Below, piece by piece: positions 3,528 to 62,731 of a DNA stretch of 64,000 nt. How positions within the stretch are numbered: position 1 is the stretch's first letter; every line of letters starts with the position of its first letter. Source of the DNA: Patescibacteria group bacterium (GTDB lineage Bacteria > Patescibacteriota > Patescibacteriia > UBA9570 > JAHJKD01); assembly GCA_041660885.1 (NCBI GenBank), contig JBAZVM010000006.1, forward strand, positions 15,063-79,062, read 5' to 3'. The position numbers and the translations under genes were made by a program. The notes under the pieces were generated by a model. That model saw nothing but the letters and a program-made list of their open reading frames with translations, was not told the origin of the DNA and did no database searches.

Positions 3528-4478
3528 TTAATAAAACATTTTACTGGTGGGAAAAAGTATCACGTCTTCCAAGCTGGTTTTATTGGTAAGTAGCATAATC
3601 AAGCGATCCACACCCAAGGCAATGCCGCCGCAAGGAGGCAAGCCCTTTTTTAATCCCGCGATGAATTCCATATCCACGGGATAGGCTTCTTTGCCTAATT
3701 TATTTCTTTCCTCTCTTTCCGCTTCCAAACGAGCAAACTGTTCTTGCCAATCTGTCAGTTCGGAAAAAGCATTGGCCAATTCTATGCCAGCGATATAAAG
3801 CTCAAAACGTTCCGCGAAAAATTCATTTTTCTTTTTAGAGAGCGCGGCCATAGATGCGGGGTAATCCGTTAAAAAAGTCGGTTTATCTTGCCCGAGCTTT
3901 CTTTCTATATCGGTTAAAAATATTTTATAGAATTTTTCCTCAAAATTAGTCTCTTGCATTAATTTTTTCAAATCAGTATTGGCGTATTTTTTAAAGGCCT
4001 GCTCGCAAGTAATATATTCCCAGGGAGGGGTTAAGTTTATTTTTTTGTTTTGATAGTTAAGATAATCTGATTTATTAAATTGCTTATTAATAAAATAAAT
4101 TAAATTTTCCGTGTCTTTGGCGATTCCCATATAATCCGTATTCACGCGATACCATTCCAGAATTTTAAATTCCAGATTATGAATGGGGGAGTTATCTTCT
4201 TCGTTTCTGAAAGCCGAAGTGATTTGAAAGATTTTTTCAAAGCCATCAGCAAGCAAGCGCTTCATGGCGTATTCCGGAGACATAATCAAATACGCCGGCT
4301 TTTTGGCGCCTTTAAAGCTAATCACTTCGGTTTTAAACGGCGTTAAATACGGCTCCATGCTGGGAACGGCTACCAGTTCCGGCGTGGCCACTTCTAGAAA
4401 TTTATTTTTTTTGAACCACTGCCGCGTGAAATCGGTTATGCGGCTGTAATTTTGCGCTATGGTTAATTTTTCTTTCAT
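3528..4478 (-). CDS. epmA: EF-P lysine ligase EpmA/GenX (truncated class II LysRS paralog)
   Basis: Class II aaRS motifs SPEYAMKRLL, FRNEE, ERFELYIAGIELANAF, GIALGVDRLIMLL. About 316 aa, with no anticodon-binding domain. Confidence 0.85.
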   Translation of the reverse strand: MKEKLTIAQNYSRITDFTRQWFKKNKFLEVATPELVAVPSMEPYLTPFKTEVISFKGAKKPAYLIMSPEYAMKRLLADGFEKIFQITSAFRNEEDNSPIHNLEFKILEWYRVNTDYMGIAKDTENLIYFINKQFNKSDYLNYQNKKINLTPPWEYITCEQAFKKYANTDLKKLMQETNFEEKFYKIFLTDIERKLGQDKPTFLTDYPASMAALSKKKNEFFAERFELYIAGIELANAFSELTDWQEQFARLEAEREERNKLGKEAYPVDMEFIAGLKKGLPPCGGIALGVDRLIMLLTNKTSLEDVILFPTSKMFY

Positions 4479-4537
4479 TGTCTTAGCTTATTATATTTTA
4501 TTAAATATTTCAATAGAAATATGGTATAATCAATATT

Positions 4538-6961
4538 ATGAAAAGAATAATTTTTGTTATTGTCTTTAGCGTATTTTTACTATCAAGTAATTACTGCTTG
4601 GCGCAGGAGTTAGATATTGGGGAATATGCTCCGGATGAAGTAATCGTGCAATTTCACGCGATAAATACCGATAAAATAGAAGCAGATAGACAATTATCTA
4701 GTTTTGCCGTGGCCAATGATATGGAATATACGGAATCTTTATTATTTGTTGATGCCGCGGTTTTTAAAATTAATAACGGGGAAACAGTATTGGAAGCTAT
4801 CACGAGGTTAAAAGAGAATCCGGCTGTTTCTTATGTCCAGCCGAATTTTCGCTATCATTCATTATCCATTGATACCAATGATCCTTATAAAGATTTTTTA
4901 TGGGGCTTGGATAACAGCGGGCAGACTATAAACACCGTGGTTGGCACGACTGACGCGGATATAGACGCTCCGGAAGCTTGGGCCATTAACGAAGGCACGA
5001 ATGAAGATGTTATTGTGGCTGTGATAGATATGGGAGTGGGCTATAACCATCCGGATCTAGTTAACCAGATGTGGGATGGCACAAATTGCCTGGATGAAAA
5101 CGGCAATTATTTGGGCGGATGCGTTCATGGCTATGACTACGGATACGACGATAAAGACCCTTTGCCCAATGGTGATTCCCACGGCACGCATGTTTCCGGC
5201 ACCATTGCCGCGGAAAAGAATAACGGCTTTGGCATCGCGGGAGTGGCGCCTCAAGCGACGATCATGGCTCTACAAGCCACGCAATCAGACGGATATTTTT
5301 ATGATACGGAAATAATGAAGTCTATAAATTTTGCCAAGCAAAACGGCGCCAGCGTTATTAATGCCAGCTTTGGCGGCGGATCTTTCGCTTGCTTTTTTAT
5401 TTACGATGAACTGACCTACAACGCCATCGCGGATTTTCCCGGATTGTTCGTGGTCGCCGCGGGAAACGATAGCGCGGAACACGATGGATCCAATTATGTG
5501 GTCGTGCCCGCGGATTACGGGCACCCGAGCGATTGCTGGGACGGGTTAGATAATGTTATTAGCGTGGCCGCGACAGACTCCAACGATGAGCTGGCATCTT
5601 TTTCCGATTATGGCGCAAATTTTATAGATGTCGGCGCACCCGGTGCAGATACTTTAAGCAGCGTCGCGGAAAATTTTTATCTGTATGAAACTTTCGGCAA
5701 TACCGCAACTGGATCTCTTCCTGCTAGCTGGACCAGTTCCGGTGGTAACTGGGGTGCGGGTTCTGTCGCCACTTTTAACAGCGAATCATCTTGGGGCCAG
5801 GTGCTGTACCCAGATGTTAGTGGTGTCGCCACTACCGGCTATTATTACGCGGGAAGCGATAGCAGTTCTATCACTTCGCCGGTTTACGATTTAAGCGCTG
5901 CCAGCACCGAAGCCACTTTTAATTTTCGCGCCAGATGCGACACGGAGTATGTGGAAACGCCGCACGATTATATGGCGCTTTCTTTCAGCGCGGACGGTAT
6001 TACCTTTACCCCCGTGAGCTTGTCTTATTACGGCGATGAAAAAATTGATGAATATATTTTAGACAGCATCGAAGGAGATTATGATTCTGACAATGATACT
6101 TATTCATATTTTGATGATGTGGCTTTAGATGGATATTTTACCGGTAATTTTCAGTTTCGTTTTTCTTGGGTTTCCGATGGCGATGATAATGCGCATCGAG
6201 GATGTGTTGTTGATAATATTTCCGTAAATATAATGGGAGACGGTTCAGCGGACGAGTATGATTATTACAGCGGCACATCCATGGCCGCGCCGCATGTTTC
6301 GGGCTTAGCCGCTTTGTTAATGGGGTACCGCCCCAATTTAACAGCGGCGCAGGTAAAATCCGTAATTTTGGAATCCGGCGACAGTTTGGATTCTTTGTCC
6401 GGCAAAACCGTAACCGGAAAAAGAATCAATGCTTATAACGCCTTGGCCAATTCCGATTTTCCCAATCCGCCTACTGTTAATACTCTTAAAACTCCCACGA
6501 AAAAAGCCACCAAGACTATTTCCGGAACCAAAGACGCCAATACATCCGTATTGTTAAATGGCGAAAGAATTGTTGAAAGAGATAGCGCTGCAACTTGGAG
6601 TTACGAGTTAACCTTAACAGAAGGCGTTAATAATCTTAGCTTTACTTCTAAAAATTCTAGTGGCTTGGAAAGCGCGGCCGCGGAAACCGCGGTTACTCTG
6701 GATACTACCGCGCCAAAGATTCGTTCTAATTATCACACCGGCACGTATCATCATCAGCGCAGAATGAGATTATCCTGCAATGAAGTGTGCACGCTTTATT
6801 ACACGCGCGATAAAACTAAACCCACAAAGCATTCAAAAAAATATAAGCATTCCTTTCTCGTAAAACAAAGCAAGACCATTAAAATCGTAGCATTTGACCA
6901 ATTAAATAATAAATCCGATATTAAAAAAATAATAATTCATATTGACTATATTAAAAAATAA
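4538..6961 (+). CDS. secreted subtilisin-like serine protease (peptidase S8) with a long C-terminal extension
   Basis: Signal peptide. Catalytic motifs VAVIDMGV (Asp), HGTHVSGTIAA (His), GTSMAAPHVSGLAALL (Ser). Confidence 0.9.
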   Translation: MKRIIFVIVFSVFLLSSNYCLAQELDIGEYAPDEVIVQFHAINTDKIEADRQLSSFAVANDMEYTESLLFVDAAVFKINNGETVLEAITRLKENPAVSYVQPNFRYHSLSIDTNDPYKDFLWGLDNSGQTINTVVGTTDADIDAPEAWAINEGTNEDVIVAVIDMGVGYNHPDLVNQMWDGTNCLDENGNYLGGCVHGYDYGYDDKDPLPNGDSHGTHVSGTIAAEKNNGFGIAGVAPQATIMALQATQSDGYFYDTEIMKSINFAKQNGASVINASFGGGSFACFFIYDELTYNAIADFPGLFVVAAGNDSAEHDGSNYVVVPADYGHPSDCWDGLDNVISVAATDSNDELASFSDYGANFIDVGAPGADTLSSVAENFYLYETFGNTATGSLPASWTSSGGNWGAGSVATFNSESSWGQVLYPDVSGVATTGYYYAGSDSSSITSPVYDLSAASTEATFNFRARCDTEYVETPHDYMALSFSADGITFTPVSLSYYGDEKIDEYILDSIEGDYDSDNDTYSYFDDVALDGYFTGNFQFRFSWVSDGDDNAHRGCVVDNISVNIMGDGSADEYDYYSGTSMAAPHVSGLAALLMGYRPNLTAAQVKSVILESGDSLDSLSGKTVTGKRINAYNALANSDFPNPPTVNTLKTPTKKATKTISGTKDANTSVLLNGERIVERDSAATWSYELTLTEGVNNLSFTSKNSSGLESAAAETAVTLDTTAPKIRSNYHTGTYHHQRRMRLSCNEVCTLYYTRDKTKPTKHSKKYKHSFLVKQSKTIKIVAFDQLNNKSDIKKIIIHIDYIKK

Positions 6962-52372: not shown

Positions 52373-55300
52373 ATGCCGGATGCTACTAACCAGCAAGAAC
52401 AACAAAATCAGCCCAAAACACCAGAAAAGAGAAAACCCAGTATTTGGGAAGGAATAAAAATATTTTTTCGCAGAGGAGAACAAATCCAAGAAGAGGGCGC
52501 AAAAAAAGTCGATGCGGTACCGGAAGAAATAAGGCCGGAAGTGCAGCAAGTAGTATTGGAGAGCACCGATAGAATTGTGCGATATTTGGAGCAAGCCGAA
52601 AGAGAAATTCAAGAAGCGATGAGCGCGGGGATTAAAACACCGTCTGAGTCAATCAAACAAGAAATTGTTTTAAAATATAAGATTGATCAATTATCCGCTC
52701 AAGACGCCAGCGCGTTACTTAAAAAATTAGAGCTTGTTAAACCCGCCGTAGATGCCGGGCAAATTAATATTCGTAATATAGATGATTTAAATAATAATGC
52801 TGTGATTCCGCAGAATGCAGGAGCCCGCGAGTATCATTTATCACCCGAGGAAGTAAGGAAATTAAGCGAGCAAAGAGACGCTGTAGATGTTGTTGGAAGC
52901 GCTATTTATAAACCAGATGATCAGGTTGGCCCGCCGATAATCAACCCTGAAGATTTGATTGTATCTACCGACCCCGCAAAACGTAAAGCAATGCCTAACA
53001 TCAATAGTTTAGATCCTAATTTATTAACTATACAAGATATGTCGCCAAAAAAAAGACGCGGCCCCGATGCCATTCCTCCGGGAGCGGGCAATTTGGATGC
53101 CAAATTAGTTGATGGAACCTTGCTGGCTATTGGTGGCTTGGTTCGATTGGAAAATGACAATGTAAATACTTGGCAAATTACAGAAATACAATCTGGCAGA
53201 GTTGGGGTGGTTAATATTAATAATCCCAAAGAAAAAGAATGGTTGAAGAGAGGCAATGATGGAAAAGTTGATGAAATTGAAAGAACGCTCACGAAAGATG
53301 AAATCGATGCTTTATATCCGCCTGCTCCTGTGGCCGCTTCTTCCGGGCCAACACCGCCCAACCCCGCCACACCTCCGCCACCGGGCGCCATGCCTCCGCC
53401 ACCTCCGAGCCCCGCTGCTCCTCCCGCACCGCCTTCGGGCCCTCCAACGCGCGGCAGATTAGGTTCGCTATGGGATAGAGTGCGAGGCCGCGGCGATAGC
53501 GCTTTAACTCCGGAAGATAAAGAAAAAGCTTTATTAGCCAAGATGAGCCTGAGAGAATTTATCTACAGTCCGGATGATAAAGAAGCCATGATAGCTAAGG
53601 AAAACGCTATTAGTACGGCTCGTGGTTTATATGCGCGCGAGGGTAATGATGCCAATAAAAATGACTATAGATTAAAAATTAACGAATATCGCGCGGCTAT
53701 TAAGGAAGCGATAAATCGCAAAGATAGTATTCTAACCCCGGAAAAGAAAAAGCAATTTTTAGATGAGCTTTATATTTTAACCGTAGTAGACGAGGCAACA
53801 GCTTTATATGAAGCGCAACAACAGGCGCAGAGAGAAAGCCAGCCCGATGGAATAAAGAAAAAAGGAAAAGAATTATGGGCCAGATTTACCAACCATATAG
53901 ATAACCGTTTAAATTGGTATCGCGGTTTATCTTGGAAGAAAAAAATCGCGGTTAGCGCCGGTTTAATGGGAATAGGTTTAGCCGGCGGATTCGCCGGCGG
54001 CGCGATCGGCGCTTCAGCCGTGGGCGCGGCGGCAGCCGGCGGTTACGCTTTGCGTTTATTAGGCGCGACTGTCATGGCTAAAACCGGAGCGCGCTTGGGA
54101 AGCGACTATGCCCGCAAGCGGCAGCAAAGAAGGGATTTGGGAGATATCCAACAAACTCCGGAAAGCGCTGAATACCTAGCTGAAACGGACTTGGCAAAAA
54201 TTGAAAGTTTAGACAATGCTTTAAATGATAAATTATCCAGCTTATTGCAAAATCAAGCGCGAGATAAAAGAAACCGATTATTAGCCGCCACGGGCGGAGC
54301 CGTTCTCGGCGCCGGCGCTTCCATAGGTATTGGCCAGGTGGGCCGCTATTTATCTCACGATATCGTAGGCTATTTTCAAGGTGAAGCTCCAACAGCTGAA
54401 GCGCCCGTAGAACCAGCTGGTACTGCTAATACAGCTGAAGCTATGCCTCCTACTTCTAATGTCGCTCCCGAAGCGCCATCCACGGAAGTGATCAGGCCGG
54501 TGGCGACTCATTATTATACCAATGAAATAGAAGGCACAACCGGACGGGATTATGAATCTAAATCTTTGCTTCAATTGATTGAAGCGCATAAAACGGATTT
54601 GGGATATGATTCCAATACGGACGGAGATCCGGATAAATGGGTGCGCCATGAATTCCGTACAGCCATGGCCGAATTAAAAGGCAAAGGCCAATGGTATGAT
54701 TTAACTCATCAGGGAGATAGAGTGGTTTTGCAGGTGAATCCTGATGGCAGCCATGAGTATTCTTTTCAAAATGATTCTGCCATTGCCCCGGGCGAGCATT
54801 TGCCTCAACACGCGCCGGCCACCGTAGCCGAGTCCGCGGAACAACCGGCATTGGAACCTACTAAACCCGAAGTAATTCCCGAAGAGCATAGTTTATCTAC
54901 GGAAGAGGCGCGAGTATTGCATGATATGCAGCATTCGCATGAAGATACAATGAAACCCATGAAACACATGCAGGCCAGCCGTACCTTCGAGCGCAATTGG
55001 GACACTTTGCAACCTTTAGCCGAATCTTTAGGCCAGACTAAAGAGCAATTTAAAGATGCCTTGTTAGGCCATCTAGACAAAGGAGAAGATATCTCGGATA
55101 TTTATAGCCACGTTGCTCCGACAGCTGAAGCGTCTGTTTCTACTGGGGTATCCGCCGATGGGGTTGGTGAAAGTGGCGGCGGGGGAGCGGCAACTGCGGA
55201 TGAGACGGCTAAGGCTGAACCTCAGCAGGAAGCAGCAGGAATAGATAGCCATGCAGATACTCATATCTCTGCCGCAGACACATTAGATATTAGTTCTGAT

Positions 55301-55720
55301 ACAGTTCAATTATCACCGGAAGCGCTAAAAGGAGTGGATACGGTTTATTATCATCCCGTGGCTAATTATGGCGGTGTTTGGAATGAGCCGGTTACCGGAA
55401 GAGTGGCTCTTGATTTAAGCCCCTATACGCCGGAACAAAAAATGCAGATTATCCAGCTAACTAGGTTAATGAATGTGGCGGCTTTTATGGGAGAAAATCC
55501 AGAGCAACATGGATTAGGCGTAGCTCCGGATGTGGAAACATTTGTCGCTTTTGTTAATAAAGGCGAAGCTTTAAGCTGGCTGTATGATAGTAAAGTGGAT
55601 GGCGTGGCAATAGACATGGCAGACCGTGCCTTGCCGAAAACTATGAATCCACAAGAATGGCAGGATTATATCAGTTCTAATTTATTGCATACCCCTGATC
55701 AAAGAATGGCTGCGAAGTAG
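52373..55720 (+). CDS. very large hypothetical protein (1115 aa) with a polyproline tract and a central Gly/Ala-rich TM region
   Basis: Long ORF. PPPPGAMPPPPPSPAAPPAPPSGPP tract. Hydrophobic region IAVSAGLMGIGLAGGFAGGAIGASAVGAAAAGG. Confidence 0.6.
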   Translation: MPDATNQQEQQNQPKTPEKRKPSIWEGIKIFFRRGEQIQEEGAKKVDAVPEEIRPEVQQVVLESTDRIVRYLEQAEREIQEAMSAGIKTPSESIKQEIVLKYKIDQLSAQDASALLKKLELVKPAVDAGQINIRNIDDLNNNAVIPQNAGAREYHLSPEEVRKLSEQRDAVDVVGSAIYKPDDQVGPPIINPEDLIVSTDPAKRKAMPNINSLDPNLLTIQDMSPKKRRGPDAIPPGAGNLDAKLVDGTLLAIGGLVRLENDNVNTWQITEIQSGRVGVVNINNPKEKEWLKRGNDGKVDEIERTLTKDEIDALYPPAPVAASSGPTPPNPATPPPPGAMPPPPPSPAAPPAPPSGPPTRGRLGSLWDRVRGRGDSALTPEDKEKALLAKMSLREFIYSPDDKEAMIAKENAISTARGLYAREGNDANKNDYRLKINEYRAAIKEAINRKDSILTPEKKKQFLDELYILTVVDEATALYEAQQQAQRESQPDGIKKKGKELWARFTNHIDNRLNWYRGLSWKKKIAVSAGLMGIGLAGGFAGGAIGASAVGAAAAGGYALRLLGATVMAKTGARLGSDYARKRQQRRDLGDIQQTPESAEYLAETDLAKIESLDNALNDKLSSLLQNQARDKRNRLLAATGGAVLGAGASIGIGQVGRYLSHDIVGYFQGEAPTAEAPVEPAGTANTAEAMPPTSNVAPEAPSTEVIRPVATHYYTNEIEGTTGRDYESKSLLQLIEAHKTDLGYDSNTDGDPDKWVRHEFRTAMAELKGKGQWYDLTHQGDRVVLQVNPDGSHEYSFQNDSAIAPGEHLPQHAPATVAESAEQPALEPTKPEVIPEEHSLSTEEARVLHDMQHSHEDTMKPMKHMQASRTFERNWDTLQPLAESLGQTKEQFKDALLGHLDKGEDISDIYSHVAPTAEASVSTGVSADGVGESGGGGAATADETAKAEPQQEAAGIDSHADTHISAADTLDISSDTVQLSPEALKGVDTVYYHPVANYGGVWNEPVTGRVALDLSPYTPEQKMQIIQLTRLMNVAAFMGENPEQHGLGVAPDVETFVAFVNKGEALSWLYDSKVDGVAIDMADRALPKTMNPQEWQDYISSNLLHTPDQRMAAK

Positions 55721-55731
55721 CAGATCAAATT

Positions 55732-55756
55732 AAGCCCCGAAGCAATTCGGGGCTTT
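55732..55756 (+). terminator. intrinsic terminator with GNRA loop
   Basis: AAGCCCCGAA-GCAA-TTCGGGGCTT followed by a T-rich tail. Confidence 0.75.
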
Positions 55757-55774
55757 AATATGGGCTTTAGTATT

Positions 55775-55824
55775 CAAAGATATCCACAGTATAAAATTGC
55801 CATTTTAATATAGAGTGATACTAT
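55775..55824 (+). promoter_or_regulatory. 14-mer CAAAGATATCCACA box plus promoter upstream of the tRNA-like gene
   Basis: Box at 55775-55788. TTGCCA at 55797-55802, 16-nt spacer, TACTAT at 55819-55824. The same box-plus-promoter layout recurs at 56113-56164. Confidence 0.45.
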
Positions 55825-55832
55825 TTCTTTAG

Positions 55833-55875
55833 AGGTACTGTTGCTCGTATACTACGGGCAAAAGTGACTTGTCAA
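55833..55875 (-). repeat. inverted, degenerate copy of the tRNA-like 5-prime half plus a perfect 13-bp inverted repeat
   Basis: The reverse complement of 55833-55859 (GCCCGTAGTATACGAGCAACAGTACCT) matches 55927-55955 at 23 of 29 aligned positions. AGTGACTTGTCAA (55863-55875) is the exact reverse complement of 55956-55968. Confidence 0.6.
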
Positions 55876-55924
55876 TATATAGGCGTCCCAAATAGGGCGC
55901 TTTTATATTTATATGGTGGATCCC

Positions 55925-55999
55925 GGGCCCGTAGTGTAATGGCAGCACAGTACCTTTGACAAGTCACTAGTGCGGGTTCAATTCCCGTCGGGTCCACCA
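55925..55999 (+). tRNA. tRNA-like gene with encoded CCA but no canonical anticodon stem (possible pseudo-tRNA or recombination-scarred tRNA)
   Basis: 75 nt in total. Acceptor stem GGGCCCG/CGGGTCC. D arm GTGT-AATGGCA-GCAC. T arm GCGGG-TTCAATT-CCCGT. Discriminator A followed by CCA. The 17-nt anticodon-arm slot GTACCTTTGACAAGTCA cannot form a 5-bp stem. Confidence 0.6.
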
Positions 56000-56032
56000 C
56001 CTAAAAAACAACATTATTTAAATAACATTAAT

Positions 56033-56105
56033 AAACCCCAATGCCCTGTGCTCCGCCGTAGCGTAGCCGCTAGGCTGCGCAGAGGCGAGAATTTGGGGTT
56101 TATTT
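56033..56105 (+). terminator. long compound hairpin with U-rich tail downstream of the tRNA-like gene
   Basis: Outer stem AAACCCCAAT / ATTTGGGGTTT. Inner GC-rich hairpin GCGTAGCC-GCTA-GGCTGCGC (56061-56080). Followed by TTTATTT. Confidence 0.55.
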
Positions 56106-56112
56106 GTACCCC

Positions 56113-56164
56113 CAAAGATATCCACACCATAGGTATTGACAATATCCTCGCTCGGGTGTATTAT
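56113..56164 (+). promoter_or_regulatory. CAAAGATATCCACA box plus near-consensus sigma70 promoter driving the island leader
   Basis: Box at 56113-56126. TTGACA at 56136-56141, exact 17-nt spacer, TATTAT at 56159-56164. Confidence 0.65.
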
Positions 56165-56167
56165 AGC

Positions 56168-56896
56168 TGGTTCTTTTAAAATCAATTTTTGCCCTTACCG
56201 TTCAGCAAGCAATTGCTGGCCGGGTTATCCGTAACAAAAAAGCCTCAATCTAACCTTGAATTTGCAGGAGTGTTATACGGATGGAGGTTTTTTTGTTGCG
56301 GATATAAAGGGCTGCAACATACAGCGTCCGAAGGCCTCTGCCCCGCCTTGGCGGGGAAGAGGTCCGCGGTTCGCTGATATCCCTTCGAAGCTCGAGTGAA
56401 ACGAGAGCGAAGGAGGATGAATGAAGCAAATTGATATGCTCTTTACAATAGATTTATAAGCCACGCGGGAAACCAGGTTAAGGGCAGCAGGAATGTTATA
56501 TATAGGCACTTGCCTTCGAAAGCTCGTCCTATTGGTGGTGATATTATTATCGCTATTAATAGATCGAGCTTTTGGGCAAGTGCGCATAGCATTTCTACTG
56601 TCCTTGACCTGGCCCGCGTCCCTGTGAAGTTCCGAAAGGAACTGAACAGGACGGCGCGCCAGAACCCACTGAAGTGAACCCGAATGGGTACTTCACTGAA
56701 GGGGACCCCGATGGGCCCTTCAGGGAGATCGGAAACGATCTTCACGGGGATCCGAAAGGGTCTCTTGAGAGATTCGAAAGAATTTCTCGGGTATCCTGGC
56801 ATAGGGCCGGGTCAGTCATGGATAACGAGACATCACCGAGTGCGACCGCAACACAGGGCCGCACTTTTCCAGCAACTCCAAACGAGGTTAACAGCC
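56168..56896 (+). ncRNA. about 0.7 kb highly structured leader or large ncRNA candidate (many GNRA-capped hairpins)
   Basis: No credible ORF. Hairpins: 56203-56218 (GCAA loop), long-range helix 56226-56246 with 56283-56307, 56335-56362, 56382-56412, helix 56506-56527 with 56564-56584, 56621-56650 (CCTGT-GA-AGTTCC-GAAA-GGAACT-GA-ACAGG), 56696-56723, and three back-to-back GAAA hairpins at 56726-56741, 56746-56765 and 56767-56788. Confidence 0.55.
56840..56868 (+). terminator. possible attenuator hairpin just upstream of the cassette-1 RBS
   Basis: GTGCGACC-GCAACACAG-GGCCGCAC followed by TTTT. GAGG RBS at 56884-56887. Confidence 0.35.
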
Positions 56897-57640
56897 ATGA
56901 TGACCCTTCTGGCCCTTCTGACCCTGAACGCCTTCGCCGACGAGCCCGTCATCGACCGCATCATCATCCGCTCGTTCCCGACCGAGGCGGCCCCGATCGA
57001 TCCGTGCACGGACCCCTGCGCCAAGCCGGAGCCCGTCGTCAAGTACGTCGACACGGGCACGAACGACCACGACCAGGCGATTGCCGAGAGCGACAACGCC
57101 GCCGACGTCGCGATCGCCGAGAGTGCCGACGGCCGCGACATCGCCATCGCCACGGTCGAGTCCACAACCACGCTCGGTCTCGCCACCGAGGAGACCAAGC
57201 AGCAGGCGGCGCTGAGCCCGACGATCGAAGACGTCGCCCGAGCCGCTGCAGCTGGTGGGGCGCCGCTCTACATCAACATGGAGACCGGCATCATCAGCAC
57301 CGGCCGGCCCATGTACACCTCCGAGATCGTCGCCACGCAGGAAGGGAACCCCGCGGACCCGAAGACCAGCCTCACCTACGCCACCGGGCGCAAGGTGACC
57401 TCCTCGCAGCTCCGCGGCCTCCAGCCCCTCGACATCCGCCACAACGGCCACCTCGACTGGGCCCCGGCGATCGCGGCCACCGTCGTTGGATTCGCCGCGG
57501 GCTTCATCGCCGGCGGTGACTACCAGCACATCAACGACGGGCAGACCGACACCCTCTACGCGAACTACGGGCTCCGGTCCGTCCTCGCGGGCGCGGGCGT
57601 CGGCGCGGCCACCGGCGGGCTGGCCCTGTTCACCTTCTAG
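56897..57640 (+). CDS. high-GC cassette 1: secreted/membrane protein (247 aa) with Gly-zipper-like C-terminal helices
   Basis: GAGG RBS 9 nt upstream. Signal peptide MMTLLALLTLNAFA-DEP. GC3-rich codons. Repeats D(x)AIAES. C-terminal GFAAGFIAGG and AGAGVGAATGGLALFTF. Confidence 0.7.
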   Translation: MMTLLALLTLNAFADEPVIDRIIIRSFPTEAAPIDPCTDPCAKPEPVVKYVDTGTNDHDQAIAESDNAADVAIAESADGRDIAIATVESTTTLGLATEETKQQAALSPTIEDVARAAAAGGAPLYINMETGIISTGRPMYTSEIVATQEGNPADPKTSLTYATGRKVTSSQLRGLQPLDIRHNGHLDWAPAIAATVVGFAAGFIAGGDYQHINDGQTDTLYANYGLRSVLAGAGVGAATGGLALFTF

Positions 57641-57825
57641 CCTCTGGCTGGAGGTGAGCCCCGATCTTGGCCACGGGTGAGTTGGCCAAAAAACACTGCC
57701 CCGGGTTCCTTCACGAAGGGACCTGGGCAACTGGGAGGAGAAGTGAGATCAATCAAGACACAGCATCTTCTCTTCCCTTCCAGTTCAGTGCTTCTTAGCA
57801 AAGCTAGGGAGCAGTGAGAATGGAA
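57641..57825 (+). ncRNA. cassette 3-prime structured module, copy 1 (pseudoknot, mid hairpin, SD-like hairpin HP1, hairpin HP2)
   Basis: Pseudoknot: CCCG-ATCTTGGCCA-CGGG (57660-57677) with loop TTGGCCA pairing to TGGCCAA (57683-57689). Mid hairpin 57700-57727. HP1 57729-57785, with core GGGAGGAGAAG / CTTCTCTTCCC. HP2 57789-57813. Confidence 0.6.
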
Positions 57826-58021
57826 TTCGTTCTTTACAATAAAATCCGATTCAATAGCCCATTTGCAGGATAACCGGGCTGCGAAATATGACTGCATCAT
57901 AAATGATGTATCCATATTCCGTGGCCTGGCCTGCTAGGGTGCCTAAGTTCTTGTGCAGAGGGATTGTCCCACCGCGCATTTACCCCGGCTCCTTTTGGGC
58001 TGGGCCAGAACACGGTAACAC

Positions 58022-58042
58022 GGCCCTACTATCTATAGGGCC
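58022..58042 (+). promoter_or_regulatory. leader hairpin immediately upstream of the cassette-2 RBS
   Basis: GGCCCTA-CTATCTA-TAGGGCC, followed by a GGAG RBS at 58049-58052. Confidence 0.4.
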
Positions 58043-58058
58043 ATCACTGGAGAACGCC

Positions 58059-58502
<444 letters not shown>

Positions 58503-58685
58503 TCTCGGTGCCAGCTAGTCCGATCTTGATCCCGGACGATAATTGTGGATCACACCTACAGCCCCGAGTCCTAGATAGGACATCGGGCAACTGGGAGGAG
58601 AAGTGAGATCATACATGTTACAGCATCTTCTCTTCCCTTCCAGTTCAGTGCTTCTTAGCAAAGCTAGGGAGCAGTGAGAATGGAA
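58503..58685 (+). ncRNA. cassette 3-prime structured module, copy 2
   Basis: Pseudoknot: GTCCG-ATCTTGATCC-CGGAC (58518-58537) with loop TGATCC pairing to GGATCA (58547-58552). Mid hairpin 58563-58587. HP1 58589-58645. HP2 58649-58673. The last 100 nt equal copy 1 except for a 10-nt loop segment. Confidence 0.6.
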
Positions 58686-58698
58686 AAGGGGAGTAACT

Positions 58699-58782
58699 GA
58701 ATCACAGATTACGCAGATAAATATAGATAACACAGATATATTTTTAAGAGTAATCAGTATTAATCTGTGTAATCTGTGATTC
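58699..58782. mobile_element. CACAGAT-type inverted-repeat element A (MITE-like, no ORF)
   Basis: Left arm GAATCACAGATTACGCAGATAAA. The right arm reverse complement is GAATCACAGATTACACAGATTAA. 38-bp AT-rich centre. Confidence 0.55.
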
Positions 58783-58841
58783 AACGCCCTATGAGAAAAT
58801 CGTCGTACCTTTAAATTTATTATCAACCCCTTAACGGGTTT

Positions 58842-58897
58842 CAGGTCATGGAAGATGCGCGTTATATGAAAATATAACGATCGTCTCCCATGACCTG
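58842..58897 (+). promoter_or_regulatory. 56-nt extended hairpin with GAAA tetraloop in the cassette-3 leader
   Basis: 26-bp stem (3 mismatches, 1 GU pair) capped by GAAA. Its 3-prime arm overlaps the conserved GACCTGGCCCGCG motif. Confidence 0.55.
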
Positions 58898-58981
58898 GCC
58901 CGCGCCAGAGCTCGCACAAGGAGCATCCTGGCCAAGAAAGGGTCGGGTCAGTCTTGGGGTCACCCAGAACAGGAGTATGCC

Positions 58982-59296
58982 GTGAACATCAACTCGTGGT
59001 GGAAGTGGCTGTTGACCGTCGTCGTCACCCTCGTGGTCTTCGGACTCGGCATCGTCGTCGGGCACTACGCGTGGACTCCGTCCAACGCGCCCGTCGTCGT
59101 CGCGCAGTCCCAGACCTACCCCGACTTCCAGCAGCTCGCCGCGCTTGCCGCGAGCGGGTACGAGGTGGAGGTGGTCTACAACACCCCCGCCACCGTCCCC
59201 GTCGAGGTGCCGGTCTACGTGCCCGTCGAGGTCGAGCGCATCCCGGCCGAGGAGCCGAGCAAGGGCTCCAAGGCGTCGAAGGCCCCCGCGCGCTAG
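58982..59296 (+). CDS. high-GC cassette 3: small N-terminally anchored protein (104 aa)
   Basis: AGGAG RBS 6 nt upstream of the GTG start. TM helix WKWLLTVVVTLVVFGLGIVVG. Val/Pro/Glu-rich tail. Confidence 0.6.
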   Translation: MNINSWWKWLLTVVVTLVVFGLGIVVGHYAWTPSNAPVVVAQSQTYPDFQQLAALAASGYEVEVVYNTPATVPVEVPVYVPVEVERIPAEEPSKGSKASKAPAR

Positions 59297-59470
59297 CAGT
59301 AGCGCATGGGATAGTCCGACTCTGACCCCGGACGAAAATTGTGGGTCAAAGCTACGAAAGGGTACCCTTCGGGGGACCCGCGGGAGGGAACTGAGATATG
59401 ACTGCAACAGCATGTTCTCTCCCTTCCGCAAAAGTGTTCGTGAGGTTTCTACATAAATAAACCTCGAGAA
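59297..59470 (+). ncRNA. cassette 3-prime structured module, copy 3 (diverged, with compensatory changes)
   Basis: Pseudoknot: GTCCG-ACTCTGACCC-CGGAC (59314-59333) with loop TGACCC pairing to GGGTCA (59343-59348). Mid hairpin with UUCG loop 59360-59379. HP1 GGGAGGGAAC / GTTCTCTCCC 59382-59423. Terminal hairpin 59442-59465. Confidence 0.6.
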
Positions 59471-59486
59471 TAGTTAGCGGAATAAA

Positions 59487-59597
59487 GGTATCACAGACGG
59501 AATCACAGATTACACAGATAAATAAAAAATAAACACAGATAAGAAAACATCTGTGCAATCTGTGATCAATGTATTTATCTGCGGCATCCGTGATTCC
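59487..59597. mobile_element. CACAGAT-type inverted-repeat element B (MITE-like, no ORF)
   Basis: Outer inverted repeat 59499-59524 versus 59572-59597 (22 of 26 match). Nested inner CACAGAT/ATCTGTG repeats. Confidence 0.55.
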
Positions 59598-59648
59598 CTT
59601 ACTCCTTGCTGGACATATTAATTATTTCAGGTATTATAATAAACAAGG

Positions 59649-59675
59649 CGGCTCCCAATGCGGAGGCGTTTTTTT
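59649..59675 (+). terminator. intrinsic terminator
   Basis: CGGCTCC-CAATGC-GGAGGCG stem followed by T7. Confidence 0.55.
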
Positions 59676-59691
59676 ATTTATGGCGATGAAT

Positions 59692-60169
59692 GAATCACAA
59701 ATCACACAGATAAATCTCCGGATGGTATCGATAATTAATTTATTTAATATAAATATATGGAAGAAAATAATAAGGAAATAACATATAAAGTTATAGGTGT
59801 TGCTTATGAAGTACATAATAATTTGGGACCGGGGTTTCAAGAGGTTATTTATCAAAGGGCGCTGGCGCGAGAATTTATGGCAAAAAATATTAATTTCGCG
59901 CGTGAAGAATGGATTCCGGTATACTATAAAAATACCGTAATTGGAAAAAGAAGAGTGGATTTTACACTGTCAAAAATCATCGTCGAAATAAAAGCAAGAG
60001 CTGAAATTAAACCTAAAGATTACATTCAAACTTTATCATATTTAAAAGCGACTAAATTTAAAATAGCTCTGCTATTAAATTTTGGTACGAAACAACTACA
60101 AGTCAAACGATTTATTAATTAATCTAGTTATCTGTGTTTATCTGCATTCATTTGTGTCATCTGTGATTC
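59692..60169. mobile_element. CACAGAT-type inverted-repeat element C carrying the GxxExxY gene
   Basis: Left arm GAATCACAAATCACACAGATAAAT (59692-59715). The right arm reverse complement is GAATCACAGATGACACAAAT (60150-60169). Confidence 0.55.
59757..60122 (+). CDS. GxxExxY family protein (PD-(D/E)XK nuclease-like)
   Basis: 121 aa. Eponymous motif GFQEVIY. Overall pattern YxVIGxAxEVHxxLGxGFxExxYxxAL...RxDFxxxxxIVEIKA...LNFG matches recalled family members. Confidence 0.8.
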   Translation: MEENNKEITYKVIGVAYEVHNNLGPGFQEVIYQRALAREFMAKNINFAREEWIPVYYKNTVIGKRRVDFTLSKIIVEIKARAEIKPKDYIQTLSYLKATKFKIALLLNFGTKQLQVKRFIN

Positions 60170-60187
60170 AGCTACTCCCTTTTGTTC

Positions 60188-60216
60188 TTGACATTTTCCT
60201 CTTCGCATGTTACGTT
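60188..60216 (+). promoter_or_regulatory. candidate promoter for cassette 4
   Basis: TTGACA at 60188-60193, 17-nt spacer, TACGTT at 60211-60216. Confidence 0.45.
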
Positions 60217-60404
60217 ATTTCGTTCTCCTGCCCATTTCCCATGGGGATTTTTGCGGCGAATTTTTGTGTTTATTTTAGCCGTATAAACCCCCAAAGGACA
60301 ATGGGGAGTTTCTCAAGCCGTTACCACAGGGGTGGAACGGCGATGTGCGACAGGAAGAGAGAACCCGCCCTCCCACGATAGTGGGACGGCATAGTGAGAA
60401 GACA

Positions 60405-61661
<1,257 letters not shown>

Positions 61662-61750
61662 GTTTTTTTGGCAGCGCCCCGCTATGGCGAGGTGCCTGCC
61701 CCCGGGAGGAGAAGTGAGATTGTCAGCTACTGCATCTTCTCTTCCCTCCC
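61662..61750 (+). ncRNA. cassette 3-prime module, copy 4 (a different upstream hairpin, then HP1)
   Basis: GGCAG(CGCC-CCGCTAT-GGCG)AGGTGCCTGCC hairpin. HP1 GGGAGGAGAAG / CTTCTCTTCCC at 61704-61746, with loop TGAGAT-TGTCAGCTAC-TGCAT. Confidence 0.5.
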
Positions 61751-61876
61751 GACGTATTATCCTTTAATCCTTAGAGGCTAGTATATTGGGAGAACAAGCC
61801 CGTGTTCTCCATGTACTCCGTGTCTTCGTGATTCAGTTCCGGAATCATTGTAACTTCGTAAAAAATATGTCATAAT

Positions 61877-62731
61877 TTGGCTATGTTAAGAAATTGTTTC
61901 TATTATTTTTTTGGTATTATAATTTTATTCATTAATAAAATAAGATACGGCTTTTTTGGATATAAAAAACCGCGAGATTTTCCGGTTTCGGCTATGGAAA
62001 AGGCCATTAAATACGATCAGTCCGTGGTTGATGGCTGGCTGATAAATCTAAAACAATACGAGGGCATGGATATCAAAGATAAAACCGTGCTGGAATTAGG
62101 CCCGGGAGCCGATTTAGGCATTGCCCTGCTTTTATTAAACAAAGGCGCGAAAAAATATACGGCTTTGGATGTAAATAATTTGGTTGAAACCGTGCCCGAA
62201 TTATTCTATGAAAAATTATTGGAAAGCATCAATAATAAGGAATTAATCAGCGCTTTAAAAGATAAAAATAAAATAAATTATATTTGCGATAAAAATTTCA
62301 ATATTTCAAAAATAAATATTGAAGATAGCGCAATAATATTCAGCCAAGCCGCGTTTGAACATTTCAGCGATCCGGAAAAAGCCTTAGAGCAATTAAGCCA
62401 AACAGCAAAATCTGGCGCTATTCTGATAGCCGAGGTGGATTTGCAAACGCACACTAAGTGGCTGCGCGAAAAAGATCCTTTAAACATTTATCGTTATGCC
62501 AATAATATATATAATTTATTCCATTTTTCCGGAATACCAAACAGAATCCGTCCGCAGGAATATAAAAAAATATTGGAAAAAAATAATTGGAAGAATGTAG
62601 TGATTAAACCGAAGAATATCTTAAGCGGCCAAGAGCTAAAAAAAATAAGCCCCAGGCTGGCTGAACCGTTTAATCAGGAATCAGCTCAAATGCAAACGCT
62701 CAGTTTTATTTTATGCGCCACCAAAAAGTAA
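61877..62731 (+). CDS. class I SAM-dependent methyltransferase
   Basis: Motif I VLELGPGADLG. Rossmann-like layout. The probable start is ATG 61883. Confidence 0.75.
   Translation: MAMLRNCFYYFFGIIILFINKIRYGFFGYKKPRDFPVSAMEKAIKYDQSVVDGWLINLKQYEGMDIKDKTVLELGPGADLGIALLLLNKGAKKYTALDVNNLVETVPELFYEKLLESINNKELISALKDKNKINYICDKNFNISKINIEDSAIIFSQAAFEHFSDPEKALEQLSQTAKSGAILIAEVDLQTHTKWLREKDPLNIYRYANNIYNLFHFSGIPNRIRPQEYKKILEKNNWKNVVIKPKNILSGQELKKISPRLAEPFNQESAQMQTLSFILCATKK

Follow-up and report, generated by a model that had tools for sequence, protein, structure and literature searches.

The region at positions 56168-56896 of the 64-kb window (the whole stretch of DNA analyzed here) is an unusually long, hairpin-packed untranslated leader in an uncultured Patescibacteria genome. 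All features described below are on the plus strand unless a strand is named. A sigma-70-type promoter, TTGACA-17-TATTAT, is located at 56136-56164 and gives a predicted transcription start site at about 56171. A preliminary description of this DNA had called this promoter near-consensus; indeed, it has 11 of 12 consensus matches, and sites this good are few, both strands of the window (128 kb) containing only 7 with 11 or more matches, compared with 2.3 expected in shuffles. Further upstream, a terminator-like hairpin at 56030-56105 (MFE, −41.2 kcal/mol; z = −5.9), whose arms form a perfect 12-nt inverted repeat and which is directly followed on its 3′ side by UUUAUUUGU, ends a tRNA-like transcription unit. 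The position of this strong hairpin 5′ of the promoter indicates that the leader belongs to an independent transcription unit. The tRNA-like neighbor to which attention had been drawn is present, but its sequence is aberrant, with a broken anticodon stem, and the terminator-like hairpin separates it from the promoter, so adjacency to a tRNA carries little weight. We infer that transcription from the promoter at 56136-56164 continues through to ORF1.

ORF1 (56897-57640) encodes 247 amino acids with a signal-peptide-like N terminus, and the start at 56897 is consistent with the NCBI protein of 247 aa. The best reading of the leader is that it serves this secreted-protein gene. ORF1 has a GC content of 69% and a GC3 of 0.93, and the downstream genes reach a GC3 of ~0.9 within a 38% GC genome, a composition that is kept in a diverged relative. 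Synonymous divergence (dS) of the GC-rich genes is 0.69 while that of a neighboring host gene is saturated, which, together with the retained GC3, points to strong synonymous-site constraint. Four contigs, drawn from four samples, were retrieved with the PDDEXK_3 protein; all are 100% identical to the window and show no population variation. They independently confirm, as does L001, that the AT/GC mosaic is not an assembly chimera. The organism occurs in SRR18595301, ERZ27249449, JGI 3300014208, and SRR6484324. The content of the cassette-like array differs between genomes: at the corresponding position, a related locus, L004, carries toxin-antitoxin cassettes. In L004, the orthologous GC-rich MopE-repeat gene likewise follows a TTGACA/TATAAT promoter, and its leader of ~225 nt is a series of hairpins whose final member pairs with the GGAGG of the gene. 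We claim no orthology of ORF3 to the first ORF of L004, as the similarity is not significant (E = 1.6).

Folding of the whole region on the plus strand gives an MFE of −345.4 kcal/mol compared with −229.2 ± 7.8 kcal/mol for shuffles (z = −15.0), all pairing energies given here being nearest-neighbor predictions. The minus strand reaches −288.3 kcal/mol (z = −11.0), so that the plus-strand fold is better by 57 kcal/mol. By segment, the plus- and minus-strand z-scores are −6.6 and −4.5 at 56171-56320, −3.9 and −3.9 at 56321-56462, −15.6 and −9.4 at 56463-56620, −8.2 and −4.5 at 56621-56803, and −0.5 and −1.1 at 56804-56896. For comparison, control stretches from ORF1 (one) and from host genes (two) score between −1.4 and +1.4. 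The dense nested helices reported earlier are real, every one of them lying at or within 1 to 3 nt of where it had been placed. In domains A, D, and E, the plus-strand fold contains 19 G-U pairs and the minus-strand fold 5. That the plus strand folds better by means of G-U pairs indicates that the structure acts at the RNA level. For the seven ORFs of 44 to 119 aa in the region, GC content is not biased by codon position, and neither a Shine-Dalgarno sequence nor a Pfam match is present, in keeping with the earlier view that it holds no credible ORF, which had overlooked a single 12-codon sORF.

The upstream ~250 nt of the region fold into three domains. Domain A (56191-56312; z = −6.1) consists of a closing helix, a GCAA-capped hairpin in which 56202-56208 pairs with 56213-56219, and a 21-bp A/U-tract hairpin (56226-56246 with 56284-56304), the latter two as previously proposed. 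Motif W (GGCCGGGUU, 56217-56225), which also lies in this domain, resembles Z and provides a third partner for the segment Y described below (W:Y duplex, −21.9 kcal/mol). The inner hairpin of domain A (56242-56295; −10.2 kcal/mol) is followed by U7 and could, on these predictions, be an early terminator. Domain B (56322-56376) is a GC-rich hairpin of −38.4 kcal/mol, and domain C (56382-56416) is a hairpin of −14.6 kcal/mol whose 3′ arm is the GGAGG preceding the sORF. This 12-codon sORF (MKQIDMLFTIDL, 56421-56459) begins 4 nt after the GGAGG and is a possible leader peptide. Direct reading also reveals a candidate internal promoter that overlaps the sORF, with TTGATA at 56431-56436, an 18-nt spacer, and TATAAG at 56455-56460. 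Given the putative early terminator (56242-56295) and the putative internal promoter (56431-56460), the region could yield two RNAs instead of one.

The next element, hairpin D (56463-56619), is 158 nt long, with 67 bp, nine G-U pairs, an AT-rich tip, and a z-score of −15.6 on the plus strand versus −9.4 on the minus strand. The second long-range helix of the preliminary description exists (56506-56526 with 56565-56583) but is only the middle of this hairpin. The 5′ base of hairpin D is segment X (56463-56487) and its 3′ base is segment Y (56598-56619), which can pair with X (X:Y duplex, −40.7 kcal/mol) or with a third segment, Z. Immediately downstream lies a hairpin (56621-56650; −17.7 kcal/mol) that, as had been recognized, has a symmetric GA/GA internal loop and a GAAA tetraloop. 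Helix P2 (GCCAG:CUGGC plus ACCC:GGGU; 56658-56800) then bears five tandem tetraloop hairpins, an array with a TRF period of 27 nt that forms an expansion segment between Y and Z. The three that are GAAA capped had been noted before and lie at 56724-56788; the two others precede them at 56670-56723.

Segment Z (56803-56821) can pair with Y to form the 11-bp helix P1 or with the start-codon region of ORF1. The TIR of ORF1 (56884-56916) includes GAGG at 56884-56887, AUGAUG at 56897-56902, and the first codons, and its positions 56895-56916 are complementary to Z. The two alternative duplexes are of nearly equal predicted strength, with Y:Z at −30.7 kcal/mol and Z:TIR at −30.6 kcal/mol. Across the whole leader, no segment pairs better with the start-codon region than Z, and the 18-bp pairing is stronger than that of Z with any of 313 control windows of GC-rich ORFs (mean, −17.7 kcal/mol; standard deviation, 3.5; best, −27.8). 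Inside the loop closed by Z:TIR, a hairpin at 56838-56866 followed by UUUUCC had been proposed as an attenuator. The hairpin is genuine (−12.6 kcal/mol) but, with four U's only, weak as a terminator.

A module that also precedes the next two GC-rich genes recurs, in expanded form, as the 3′ 430 nt of the leader. Before ORF2 (unit 2), the module spans 57865-58011, with cores of X at 57874-57880, Y at 57923-57929, and Z at 58000-58006; before ORF3 (unit 3), it spans 58835-58952, with the corresponding cores at 58841-58847, 58892-58898, and 58943-58949. Units 2 and 3 retain both alternative helices, at −26 to −27 kcal/mol each, and their counterparts of hairpin D have ~28 bp. The Y core carries a single substitution (A to G, in unit 2), and both X and Z show the compensating U-to-C change. 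This argues for selection on both helices, the covariation being drawn from three paralogues in one array of one organism. A U-G wobble in Y:Z is conserved in all three units. P2a is identical in units 1 and 3, and P2b differs by two compensatory pairs. P2 of unit 3 (58904-58932) ends in a 7-nt loop with no tetraloop cluster; the GAAA-hairpin cluster is a lineage-specific expansion at the helix tip, dispensable in this paralogue. The sORF is absent from units 2 and 3 on direct reading. In the reading proposed below, domains A to C and the tandem GAAA hairpins are accessory modules, duplicated or expanded, that probably add stability and possibly provide an early termination point.

Searches placed the leader in no described RNA family. 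A cmscan against all 4,227 families of Rfam 15, which we take to include GOLLD and ROOL, returned tRNA as the sole match at the gathering threshold across the whole window. With lax filters and E ≤ 10, positions 55700-62200 and 56100-56960 yielded nothing above noise, namely miRNA and snoRNA models and a b55 match of 21 bits where the cutoff is 70. None of the models proposed for comparison at the outset (GOLLD, ROOL, introns, RNase P, tmRNA, and riboswitches) matches the leader, nor does any T-box or ribosomal-protein leader model, and ARAGORN found no tmRNA. Readings as a retron, group II intron, or IS guide RNA were rejected, as the large ORFs of the window have housekeeping Pfam matches only and there is no Rfam match. 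The results support a promoter-preceded, ORF-free element of no described class, with structure selected at the RNA level on the plus strand.

Relatives of the leader proved equally scarce. Scans of genomes, metagenomes, and viral contigs, together with phage and plasmid BLAST, found no homologue of the leader outside this one organism. The P2/Z pattern of the leader had no match in viral contigs. Its single genome match was dismissed as chance, since it falls within a long, unexceptional ORF in a GC-rich genome, a gene that we take from its sequence to encode an HlyD-type membrane-fusion protein. The trailer hairpin pattern gave 0 matches in genomes and viral contigs and, in metagenomes, only a 1.2-kb fragment identical to the window. 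ORF1, the C-terminal domain of ORF2/ORF5, and the 1,115-aa neighbor each matched itself alone among 5.8e9 proteins. An HMM of the C-terminal domain searched against 1.84e9 representatives found two full-domain relatives only, which led to loci L004 and L005. No similarity was detected between the leader and either locus, and a MAFFT alignment of four leaders was uninformative. A literature search on CPR together with cassettes or integrons found nothing relevant.

We propose, at roughly even confidence and from structure modeling, that the ~730 nt between promoter and AUG are the 5′ untranslated leader of the ORF1 mRNA and act in cis as a translational lock. Rather than being a free-standing giant RNA, the leader most likely holds the ORF1 start codon paired until the 5′ hairpin is removed. 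The conserved core would consist of mutually exclusive helices, in which Y pairs either with X, closing hairpin D, or with Z, closing P1, on which P2 and the ornamental tetraloop hairpins would sit. With Y occupied by X, Z would be free to pair with the start-codon region at 56895-56916. As X is made first during transcription and no other helix is as strong as X:Y, the expected default is X:Y together with Z:TIR, which would bury the AUG. Were X lost or occluded, Y would capture Z and release the AUG.

Partition function calculations are consistent with this scheme. For the full transcript, P(X:Y) and P(Z:TIR) are both 1.0, and the AUG is unpaired with a probability of 0.01. Blocking X changes the probabilities of X:Y, Y:Z, and Z:TIR from 1, 0, and 1 to 0, 0.97, and 0.03, respectively; with X blocked or the 5′ end placed at 56548 or 56590, P(Y:Z) is 0.94 to 0.97 and the AUG is unpaired at 0.41 to 0.43. 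The preferred trigger would be an RNase III-like endonucleolytic cut in hairpin D followed by loss of the 5′ fragment, and a trans-acting RNA or protein that binds X would be an alternative; RNase III-type processing as the trigger is a guess. We infer from the same modeling that the switch would operate in vivo. An ermC-like ribosome trigger was rejected, as in silico blocking of 56445-56472, which covers the sORF stop codon, leaves X:Y and Z:TIR at 1.0.

It is possible, if on the unlikely side, that there is no switch and that the hairpins only stabilize or punctuate the mRNA, protecting it against 5′-end-dependent decay or acting as RNase III-type stems. The trailer hairpins would then do likewise at the 3′ end, and the ambiguity between Y:X and Y:Z would be a by-product of duplication. 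Every GC-rich gene of the array has both a structured leader and a conserved trailer of four hairpins, hairpin tips vary freely in length among the paralogous units, and W, X, and Z resemble duplicated copies of one motif, all of which fit passive protection. So does the finding that toggling X/Y/Z in units 2 and 3 barely alters predicted Shine-Dalgarno and AUG accessibility, Z:TIR being strong in unit 1 only; the ancestral role of the module may thus have been another, such as stability or processing. Against this reading stand the 18-bp pairing between Z and the start codon in unit 1, which beats all 313 controls and which a pure stabilizer does not need, and the Y substitution compensated in both partners.

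A free-standing noncoding RNA is unlikely, whether it comprises the whole 0.7 kb or a ~125-nt sRNA (56171-56295) with the ORF1 leader starting separately from the internal promoter at ~56467. The strong promoter, the extreme structure, and the lack of an ORF would suit it, as would the terminator-like end of domain A, the TTGATA-18-TATAAG sequence just 5′ of hairpin D, and the complementarity between the Z-like motif of domain A and Y. Yet there is no terminator between 56300 and ORF1, and the 3′ end of the structure is paired to the ORF1 start codon. The 3′ two-thirds have paralogues in leaders directly adjoining ORFs, one paralogue does without the tetraloop cluster, and neither Rfam nor the searched collections yielded a match. 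The proposal of a large ornate RNA of the GOLLD/ROOL kind is thus not upheld, the region being a string of independent hairpins with a 3′ part related to gene leaders.

We consider it very unlikely that the palindromes function in DNA, as attC-like or MITE-like recombination or transposition sites, or are the debris of decayed cassettes at the head of the array. This idea draws on the cassette-like array whose content differs from that of L004, on inverted-repeat elements being common in spacers, and on a superficial resemblance of P1/P2 and its variable tip to an attC stem with its variable terminal structure. The advantage of 57 kcal/mol for the plus strand argues against it, as its G-U pairs become A-C mismatches on the other strand, and so does the wobble conserved in the paralogues. 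Further, the module ends read TTGACC...GGTCAG and show on inspection no AAC/GTT R-boxes, the module lies 5′ of ORFs whereas attC sites lie 3′, and the large ORFs of the window include no integrase, transposase, or reverse transcriptase. Finally, a type I toxin-like, self-repressing mRNA is extremely improbable. Hairpin D does contain a hydrophobic ORF of 44 aa (56493-56627, MLYIGTCLRKLVLLVVILLSLLIDRAF...), which starts with ATG, includes a stretch resembling a membrane helix, and lies within a very stable fold. However, this ORF has no Shine-Dalgarno sequence at usable spacing, codon-position bias, or family match; a search for an antisense promoter was negative; the counterparts of hairpin D in units 2 and 3 lack the length to encode the peptide; and hydrophobic ORFs arise by chance from T-rich palindromes.

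Patescibacteria (CPR) have small genomes, few regulators, and usually short leaders, and to our knowledge almost nothing is known about their gene regulation. If the lock is real, it would be a rare and directly testable case of RNA-based translational control in this group, with its module repeated in three paralogous units. A broader and distinctly doubtful extension is that the leader is part of a dedicated, RNase-triggered "armored mRNA" expression system in these Patescibacteria. Such a system would combine secreted, Cys-rich, or lipoprotein genes whose GC3 of ~0.9 has persisted through long divergence, a four-hairpin trailer for each gene, and a silencing leader whose lock might be opened by RNase III or by HicA/HEPN-type toxin RNases of the kind found in neighboring cassettes in the relative. 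The GC-rich, A/U-poor mRNA body would survive while ordinary AT-rich mRNAs are degraded, allowing selective expression of surface or secreted proteins in an episymbiont upon RNase activation. The persistence of genes with a GC3 of ~0.9 in an AT-rich genome is a larger puzzle than the leader, and the apparent synonymous-site constraint should surprise specialists.

Compared with known systems, the array recalls integron attC arrays in its variable content and in having one imperfect hairpin of variable tip length per gene. It differs in that the module precedes the ORFs and has no R-box motifs, no IntI occurs within 56 kb upstream or 2 kb downstream, selection acts on the transcribed strand with its G-U pairs, and the array genes have their own promoters; we reject the integron reading on the absence of R-boxes and integrase. 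GOLLD and ROOL RNAs resemble the leader in size (0.6 to 0.8 kb), in lacking an ORF, in their abundance of GNRA-capped hairpins, and in being located next to a tRNA-like gene; they are shared by many genomes or phages and frequently neighbor functional tRNA genes. The leader, however, has no covariance-model match, is conserved in one organism only, consists of serial hairpins with an optional tetraloop cluster rather than a conserved multijunction core, and runs into ORF1 and pairs with its start codon. The locus should thus stay off lists of GOLLD/ROOL-like giant RNAs.

The geometry is closer to that of the ermC and cat translational attenuation leaders, in which segments 1:2 and 3:4 pair in the off state and 2:3 in the on state, the start site lies in segment 4, the default is off since segment 1 is made first, and a short ORF with its own Shine-Dalgarno sequence lies upstream. 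The leader likewise has four segments with exclusive 1:2, 2:3, and 3:4 pairing, a start site in segment 4, a predicted off state by default since X is made first, and an upstream sORF with GGAGG. Unlike in ermC and cat, this sORF ends 4 nt before X rather than overlapping segment 1, a ribosome terminating there does not open the lock in silico, segments 1 and 2 close a hairpin of 158 nt, a distance of 190 nt spanned by five extra hairpins separates segments 2 and 3, and the regulated gene encodes a secreted protein. RNase III unmasks the ribosome-binding site in the Escherichia coli adhE and phage lambda N leaders, and hok mRNA refolds after trimming. There is no sequence similarity to these RNAs, and the mechanism suggested here is drawn from geometry alone. 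In each case, however, a long double-stranded UTR element would keep the mRNA inert until removal of one strand permits an alternative helix and exposes the start site. The 5′ UTR stem of at least ~20 bp that is typical of RNase III-processed leaders is present here as the 67-bp hairpin D, and in silico 5′ truncations of this leader free the AUG.

The leader, the ~730 nt between a promoter at 56136-56164 and the AUG of ORF1 at 56897, is preceded by a damaged-looking tRNA-like gene and a terminator-like hairpin. The promoter (TTGACA-17-TATTAT) is present as the preliminary description had it and matches at 11/12 positions; sites as good number seven on both strands of the window versus 2.3 in shuffles. 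Because the terminator-like hairpin (56030-56105; -41 kcal/mol, z = -5.9) lies upstream of the promoter and closes the tRNA-like unit, the promoter heads its own predicted transcription unit. Against the Rfam tRNA model, the tRNA-like gene (55925-55999, CCA encoded) reaches 47 bits, yet its cloverleaf is poor, with 2/5 anticodon-stem pairs and an anticodon uninterpretable by ARAGORN. It shows two alternative 5' acceptor strands, GGUGGAUCCCG and GGGCCCG, and its 5' half is partly copied twice, in inverted orientation, just upstream, within 55839-55999 (55839-55859 with 55927-55947; 55858-55875 with 55956-55973). Directly upstream of this gene, a 1115-aa ORF (52373-55720; 46% GC, somewhat above host) contains no Pfam domain and matches only itself among 5.8e9 proteins.

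All of the structural features listed in the preliminary description exist. Downstream of the promoter, 729 nt have a folding energy of -345.4 kcal/mol versus -229.2 +/- 7.8 in dinucleotide shuffles (z = -15), and their reverse complement reaches only -288.3 kcal/mol. The excess resides in 56171-56320, 56463-56620, and 56621-56803; each time the + strand folds better, with more G-U pairs, and control stretches (ORF1 and host genes) give z near 0. Selection on the structure therefore acts through the + strand RNA and not through duplex DNA. The leader had also been described as having no credible ORF. This holds for seven mechanical ORFs of 44 to 119 aa, all without codon-position bias, Shine-Dalgarno sequence, or family match, and misses one exception: a candidate 12-codon small ORF (sORF, 56421-56459) lying 4 nt downstream of a GGAGG that is itself paired within hairpin C.

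The minimum-energy fold strings together elements that each fold on their own: Domain A (a GCAA hairpin and a 21-bp A/U-tract hairpin), the GC-rich hairpins B and C, an AT-rich patch containing the sORF, hairpin D (56463-56619; 158 nt, 67 bp, nine G-U pairs), a GA/GA-GAAA hairpin, a helix, P2, bearing five tandem tetraloop hairpins (a duplication detected by TRF), and the last 95 nt. As modeled, the leader is rod-like and modular, without a single conserved multi-junction core. The inner A2 hairpin (-10.2 kcal/mol) is followed by U7 and could terminate some transcripts at ~56295, and a TTGATA-18-TATAAG sequence at 56431-56460, just before hairpin D, could be the start of others.

Local alignment inside the window finds two leader blocks again upstream of ORF3, CC(T/A)TGACCTGGCCCGCG and ATCCTGGC..AGGG(C/T)CGGGTCAGTC(A/T)TGG. 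In degenerate form, both motifs have exactly three occurrences across the 64 kb, once each before ORF1, ORF2, and ORF3 (units 1 to 3). The three leaders fold on a common plan, in which the 3' arm, Y (56598-56619 in unit 1), of a hairpin, P0, is able to pair instead with a downstream segment, Z (56803-56821), to form helix P1; P1 encloses P2, whose tip varies in length. P2a (GCCAG:CUGGC) is the same in units 1 and 3, and P2b differs between them by two compensatory pairs. Since the P2 tip is a 7-nt loop in unit 3 versus 121 nt of tandem hairpins in unit 1, the GAAA cluster behind the original idea of an ornate RNA is an expansion segment, not conserved core. In Domain A, GGCCGGGUU (56217-56225) is complementary to Y and forms a third copy resembling Z, which suggests that the leader grew by module duplication.

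In all three units, the 7-nt core of Y can pair with both an upstream segment, X (56463-56487 in unit 1), and Z. The sole change in the Y core, A to G in unit 2, is compensated in X as well as in Z, each time by U to C; Y:Z keeps a U-G wobble in 3/3 units, and both duplexes are strong throughout (-26 to -41 kcal/mol). When the unit 1 fold is extended into ORF1, Z pairs over 18 bp, in three blocks, with 56895-56916, a stretch (the TIR) that contains the AUGAUG start and the first ORF1 codons. This duplex is worth -30.6 kcal/mol, versus -17.7 +/- 3.5 (best, -27.8) for Z against 313 control windows of equally GC-rich ORFs, and no other part of the leader pairs with the start region as well as Z does. 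The first codons of ORF1 form a 9-nt tandem repeat, (UGACCCUUC) x 2.8 (56901-56925), which offers Z two pairing registers and resembles Y. In the partition function of the full transcript, X:Y and Z:TIR each have probability 1.0 and Y:Z has 0.0, leaving the AUG unpaired at 0.01. Blocking X gives 0.0 for X:Y, 0.97 for Y:Z, 0.03 for Z:TIR, and 0.43 for an unpaired AUG; with the 5' end at 56548 or 56590, where X:Y does not apply, the last three values are 0.94 to 0.97, 0.03 to 0.06, and 0.41 to 0.42.

The best-supported role for the leader is that of a cis-acting translational lock, a model that we consider to have about an even chance of being correct. Coupling of the module to the start codon is predicted to be specific to unit 1, because in units 2 and 3 the toggle works in silico, yet predicted SD/AUG accessibility barely shifts, and Z:TIR pairing is not over background in unit 2 (9+5 bp at +9 to +24) and is absent from unit 3. 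Ancestrally, the module may have served stability or processing. As for what opens the lock, an ermC-type trigger is unsupported, since a ribosome placed at the sORF stop codon leaves it shut in silico (unit 1) and units 2 and 3 lack a counterpart of the sORF. We would favor RNase III-like processing of hairpin D, because the switch flips in silico once the 5' arm of this 67-bp double-stranded hairpin is removed.

The surrounding window is a housekeeping chromosome stretch of an uncultured Patescibacteria (CPR) bacterium, with ~36 to 45% GC across most of its length and nearly all genes on the + strand. Pfam matches among its large ORFs include a release factor, an aminoacyl-tRNA synthetase, glycolysis enzymes, pyruvate:ferredoxin oxidoreductase, hydrogenase subunits, Lgt, DsbA-like proteins, HtrA-like proteases, and an ABC transporter; the same scans of the 64 kb found no integrase, transposase, or reverse transcriptase. 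The proteins flanking the leader are NCBI MAG entries WC752_03310, _03320, and _03325 on an 87-kb contig. From ~56300 to 61750, composition is a mosaic, with four ORFs of ~67 to 69% GC (ORF1, 56897-57640; ORF2, 58059-58502; ORF3, 58982-59296; ORF5, 60405-61661) between spacers of 25 to 40% GC. The mosaic is real and an assembly chimera is excluded, because a Logan contig (L001) reproduces the host DNA, tRNA-like gene, leader, and ORF1 without one difference and four more contigs (four samples, three assembly sources) are 100% identical over the AT/GC junctions at 58394-60730.

Scans of genomes, metagenomes, and viral contigs and phage/plasmid BLAST yielded no homologue of the leader. The lone genome match was judged to be chance, as it falls within a long, ordinary ORF (apparently a HlyD-type membrane-fusion gene) in a GC-rich genome. 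ORF1, and the C-terminal domain that ORF2 shares with ORF5, have only self-matches among 5.8e9 proteins. A (Thr-Asp)n linker leads into this shared domain, which is Cys-rich and spans ~80 aa; in ORF5 there are, in addition, five MopE-type metal-binding repeats. A profile search of 1.84e9 representative proteins found only two relatives with the whole domain besides ORF2 and ORF5.

The contig of one relative, L004, carries a syntenic locus of a related organism, which shares with the window a downstream O-antigen-ligase-like membrane gene (57% aa identity) and homologous trailers and has an ORF5 orthologue (4273-5412; 58% aa identity). In place of units 1 to 3 it has an AT-rich HicAB and nucleotidyltransferase/HEPN cassette array; at this equivalent chromosomal site (L004 660-3970), HicB/HicA is accompanied by four nucleotidyltransferase/HEPN cassettes. 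A conserved box, GGTGGACTTTTTTTGGTTTTTTTGGTAGCATAT, precedes most of these units only ~8 to 10 nt upstream of the ATG, so the mRNAs of most cassettes are near-leaderless. The box also occurs in the window as TTTTTTTGGTATTATAAT (61902-61922) before a methyltransferase gene, which probably starts in fact at the ATG near 61990, not at TTG 61877. In L004, the ORF5 orthologue is preceded by a terminator, then a TTGACA/TATAAT promoter, and then a leader of ~225 nt of serial hairpins, the last of which pairs with the GGAGG of the gene; the sequence of this leader is unrelated to any window leader. These GC-rich genes thus seem to be characterized by long, fast-evolving structured leaders.

The AT-rich spacers are occupied by inverted-repeat elements made of short iterated motifs (GAATCACAGAT...ATCTGTGATTC in the window; GAATCACGAAG...CTTCGTGATTC in the L004 relative), located at 58698-58783, 59499-59597, and 59691-60170, with a remnant at 61826-61840, and at L004 481-661. 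One pair brackets a PDDEXK_3 (GxxExxY) nuclease gene (59757-60122) and two elements are empty hairpins; together they look like a small mobile element with MITE-like derivatives.

We find the GC3 pattern the most interesting thing near the leader. The four GC-rich ORFs (67 to 69% GC) encode secreted, lipoprotein, or membrane products and have a GC3 of 0.91 to 0.97, versus 0.22 to 0.39 in host genes. ORF5 and its L004 orthologue (GC3, 0.93 and 0.89) differ with a dN of 0.35 and a dS of 0.69; the adjacent host membrane gene pair (GC3, 0.40 and 0.47) has a dN of 0.34 and a dS of ~2.6 (saturated). Equal dN, very different dS, and the GC3 kept in L004 therefore show that high GC3 has been maintained through long co-divergence and is not a mark of recent transfer. 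RNA structure inside the ORF was rejected as its cause, as z is about 0 there. Every GC-rich ORF is followed by a conserved hairpin trailer (57726-57828, 58586-58688, 59381-59472, and 61696-61750; L004 374-472 and 5452-5500), in which one hairpin combines a purine arm with a pyrimidine arm (GGGAGGAGAAG ... CUUCUCUUCCC) and a second ends in GAGAAUGG. Unit 1 and unit 2 trailers are 95% identical over 101 nt, and four copies compared show compensatory changes in 6/25 pairs of the two hairpins.

The module is not an attC site, as it lacks R-boxes, lies 5' of the ORFs, and folds better on the transcribed strand, and no integrase occurs among the large ORFs of the window. Rfam 15 gives no match to the leader under any setting, and membership in GOLLD, ROOL, riboswitch, T-box, intron, RNase P, and tmRNA classes fails where tested. 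The earlier interpretation is thus supported in part, and the element is not a GOLLD/ROOL-like free RNA. It is a 5' leader structured at the RNA level, new and restricted to its lineage, and by membership it falls outside every described family; it is of moderate interest itself and part of a gene system of greater interest. Nearest in mechanism are ermC/cat-type attenuators and processing-activated leaders (adhE, lambda N, and hok), and the predicted pairings match the 1:2/2:3/3:4 logic of classical translational attenuators, with the leader off by default.
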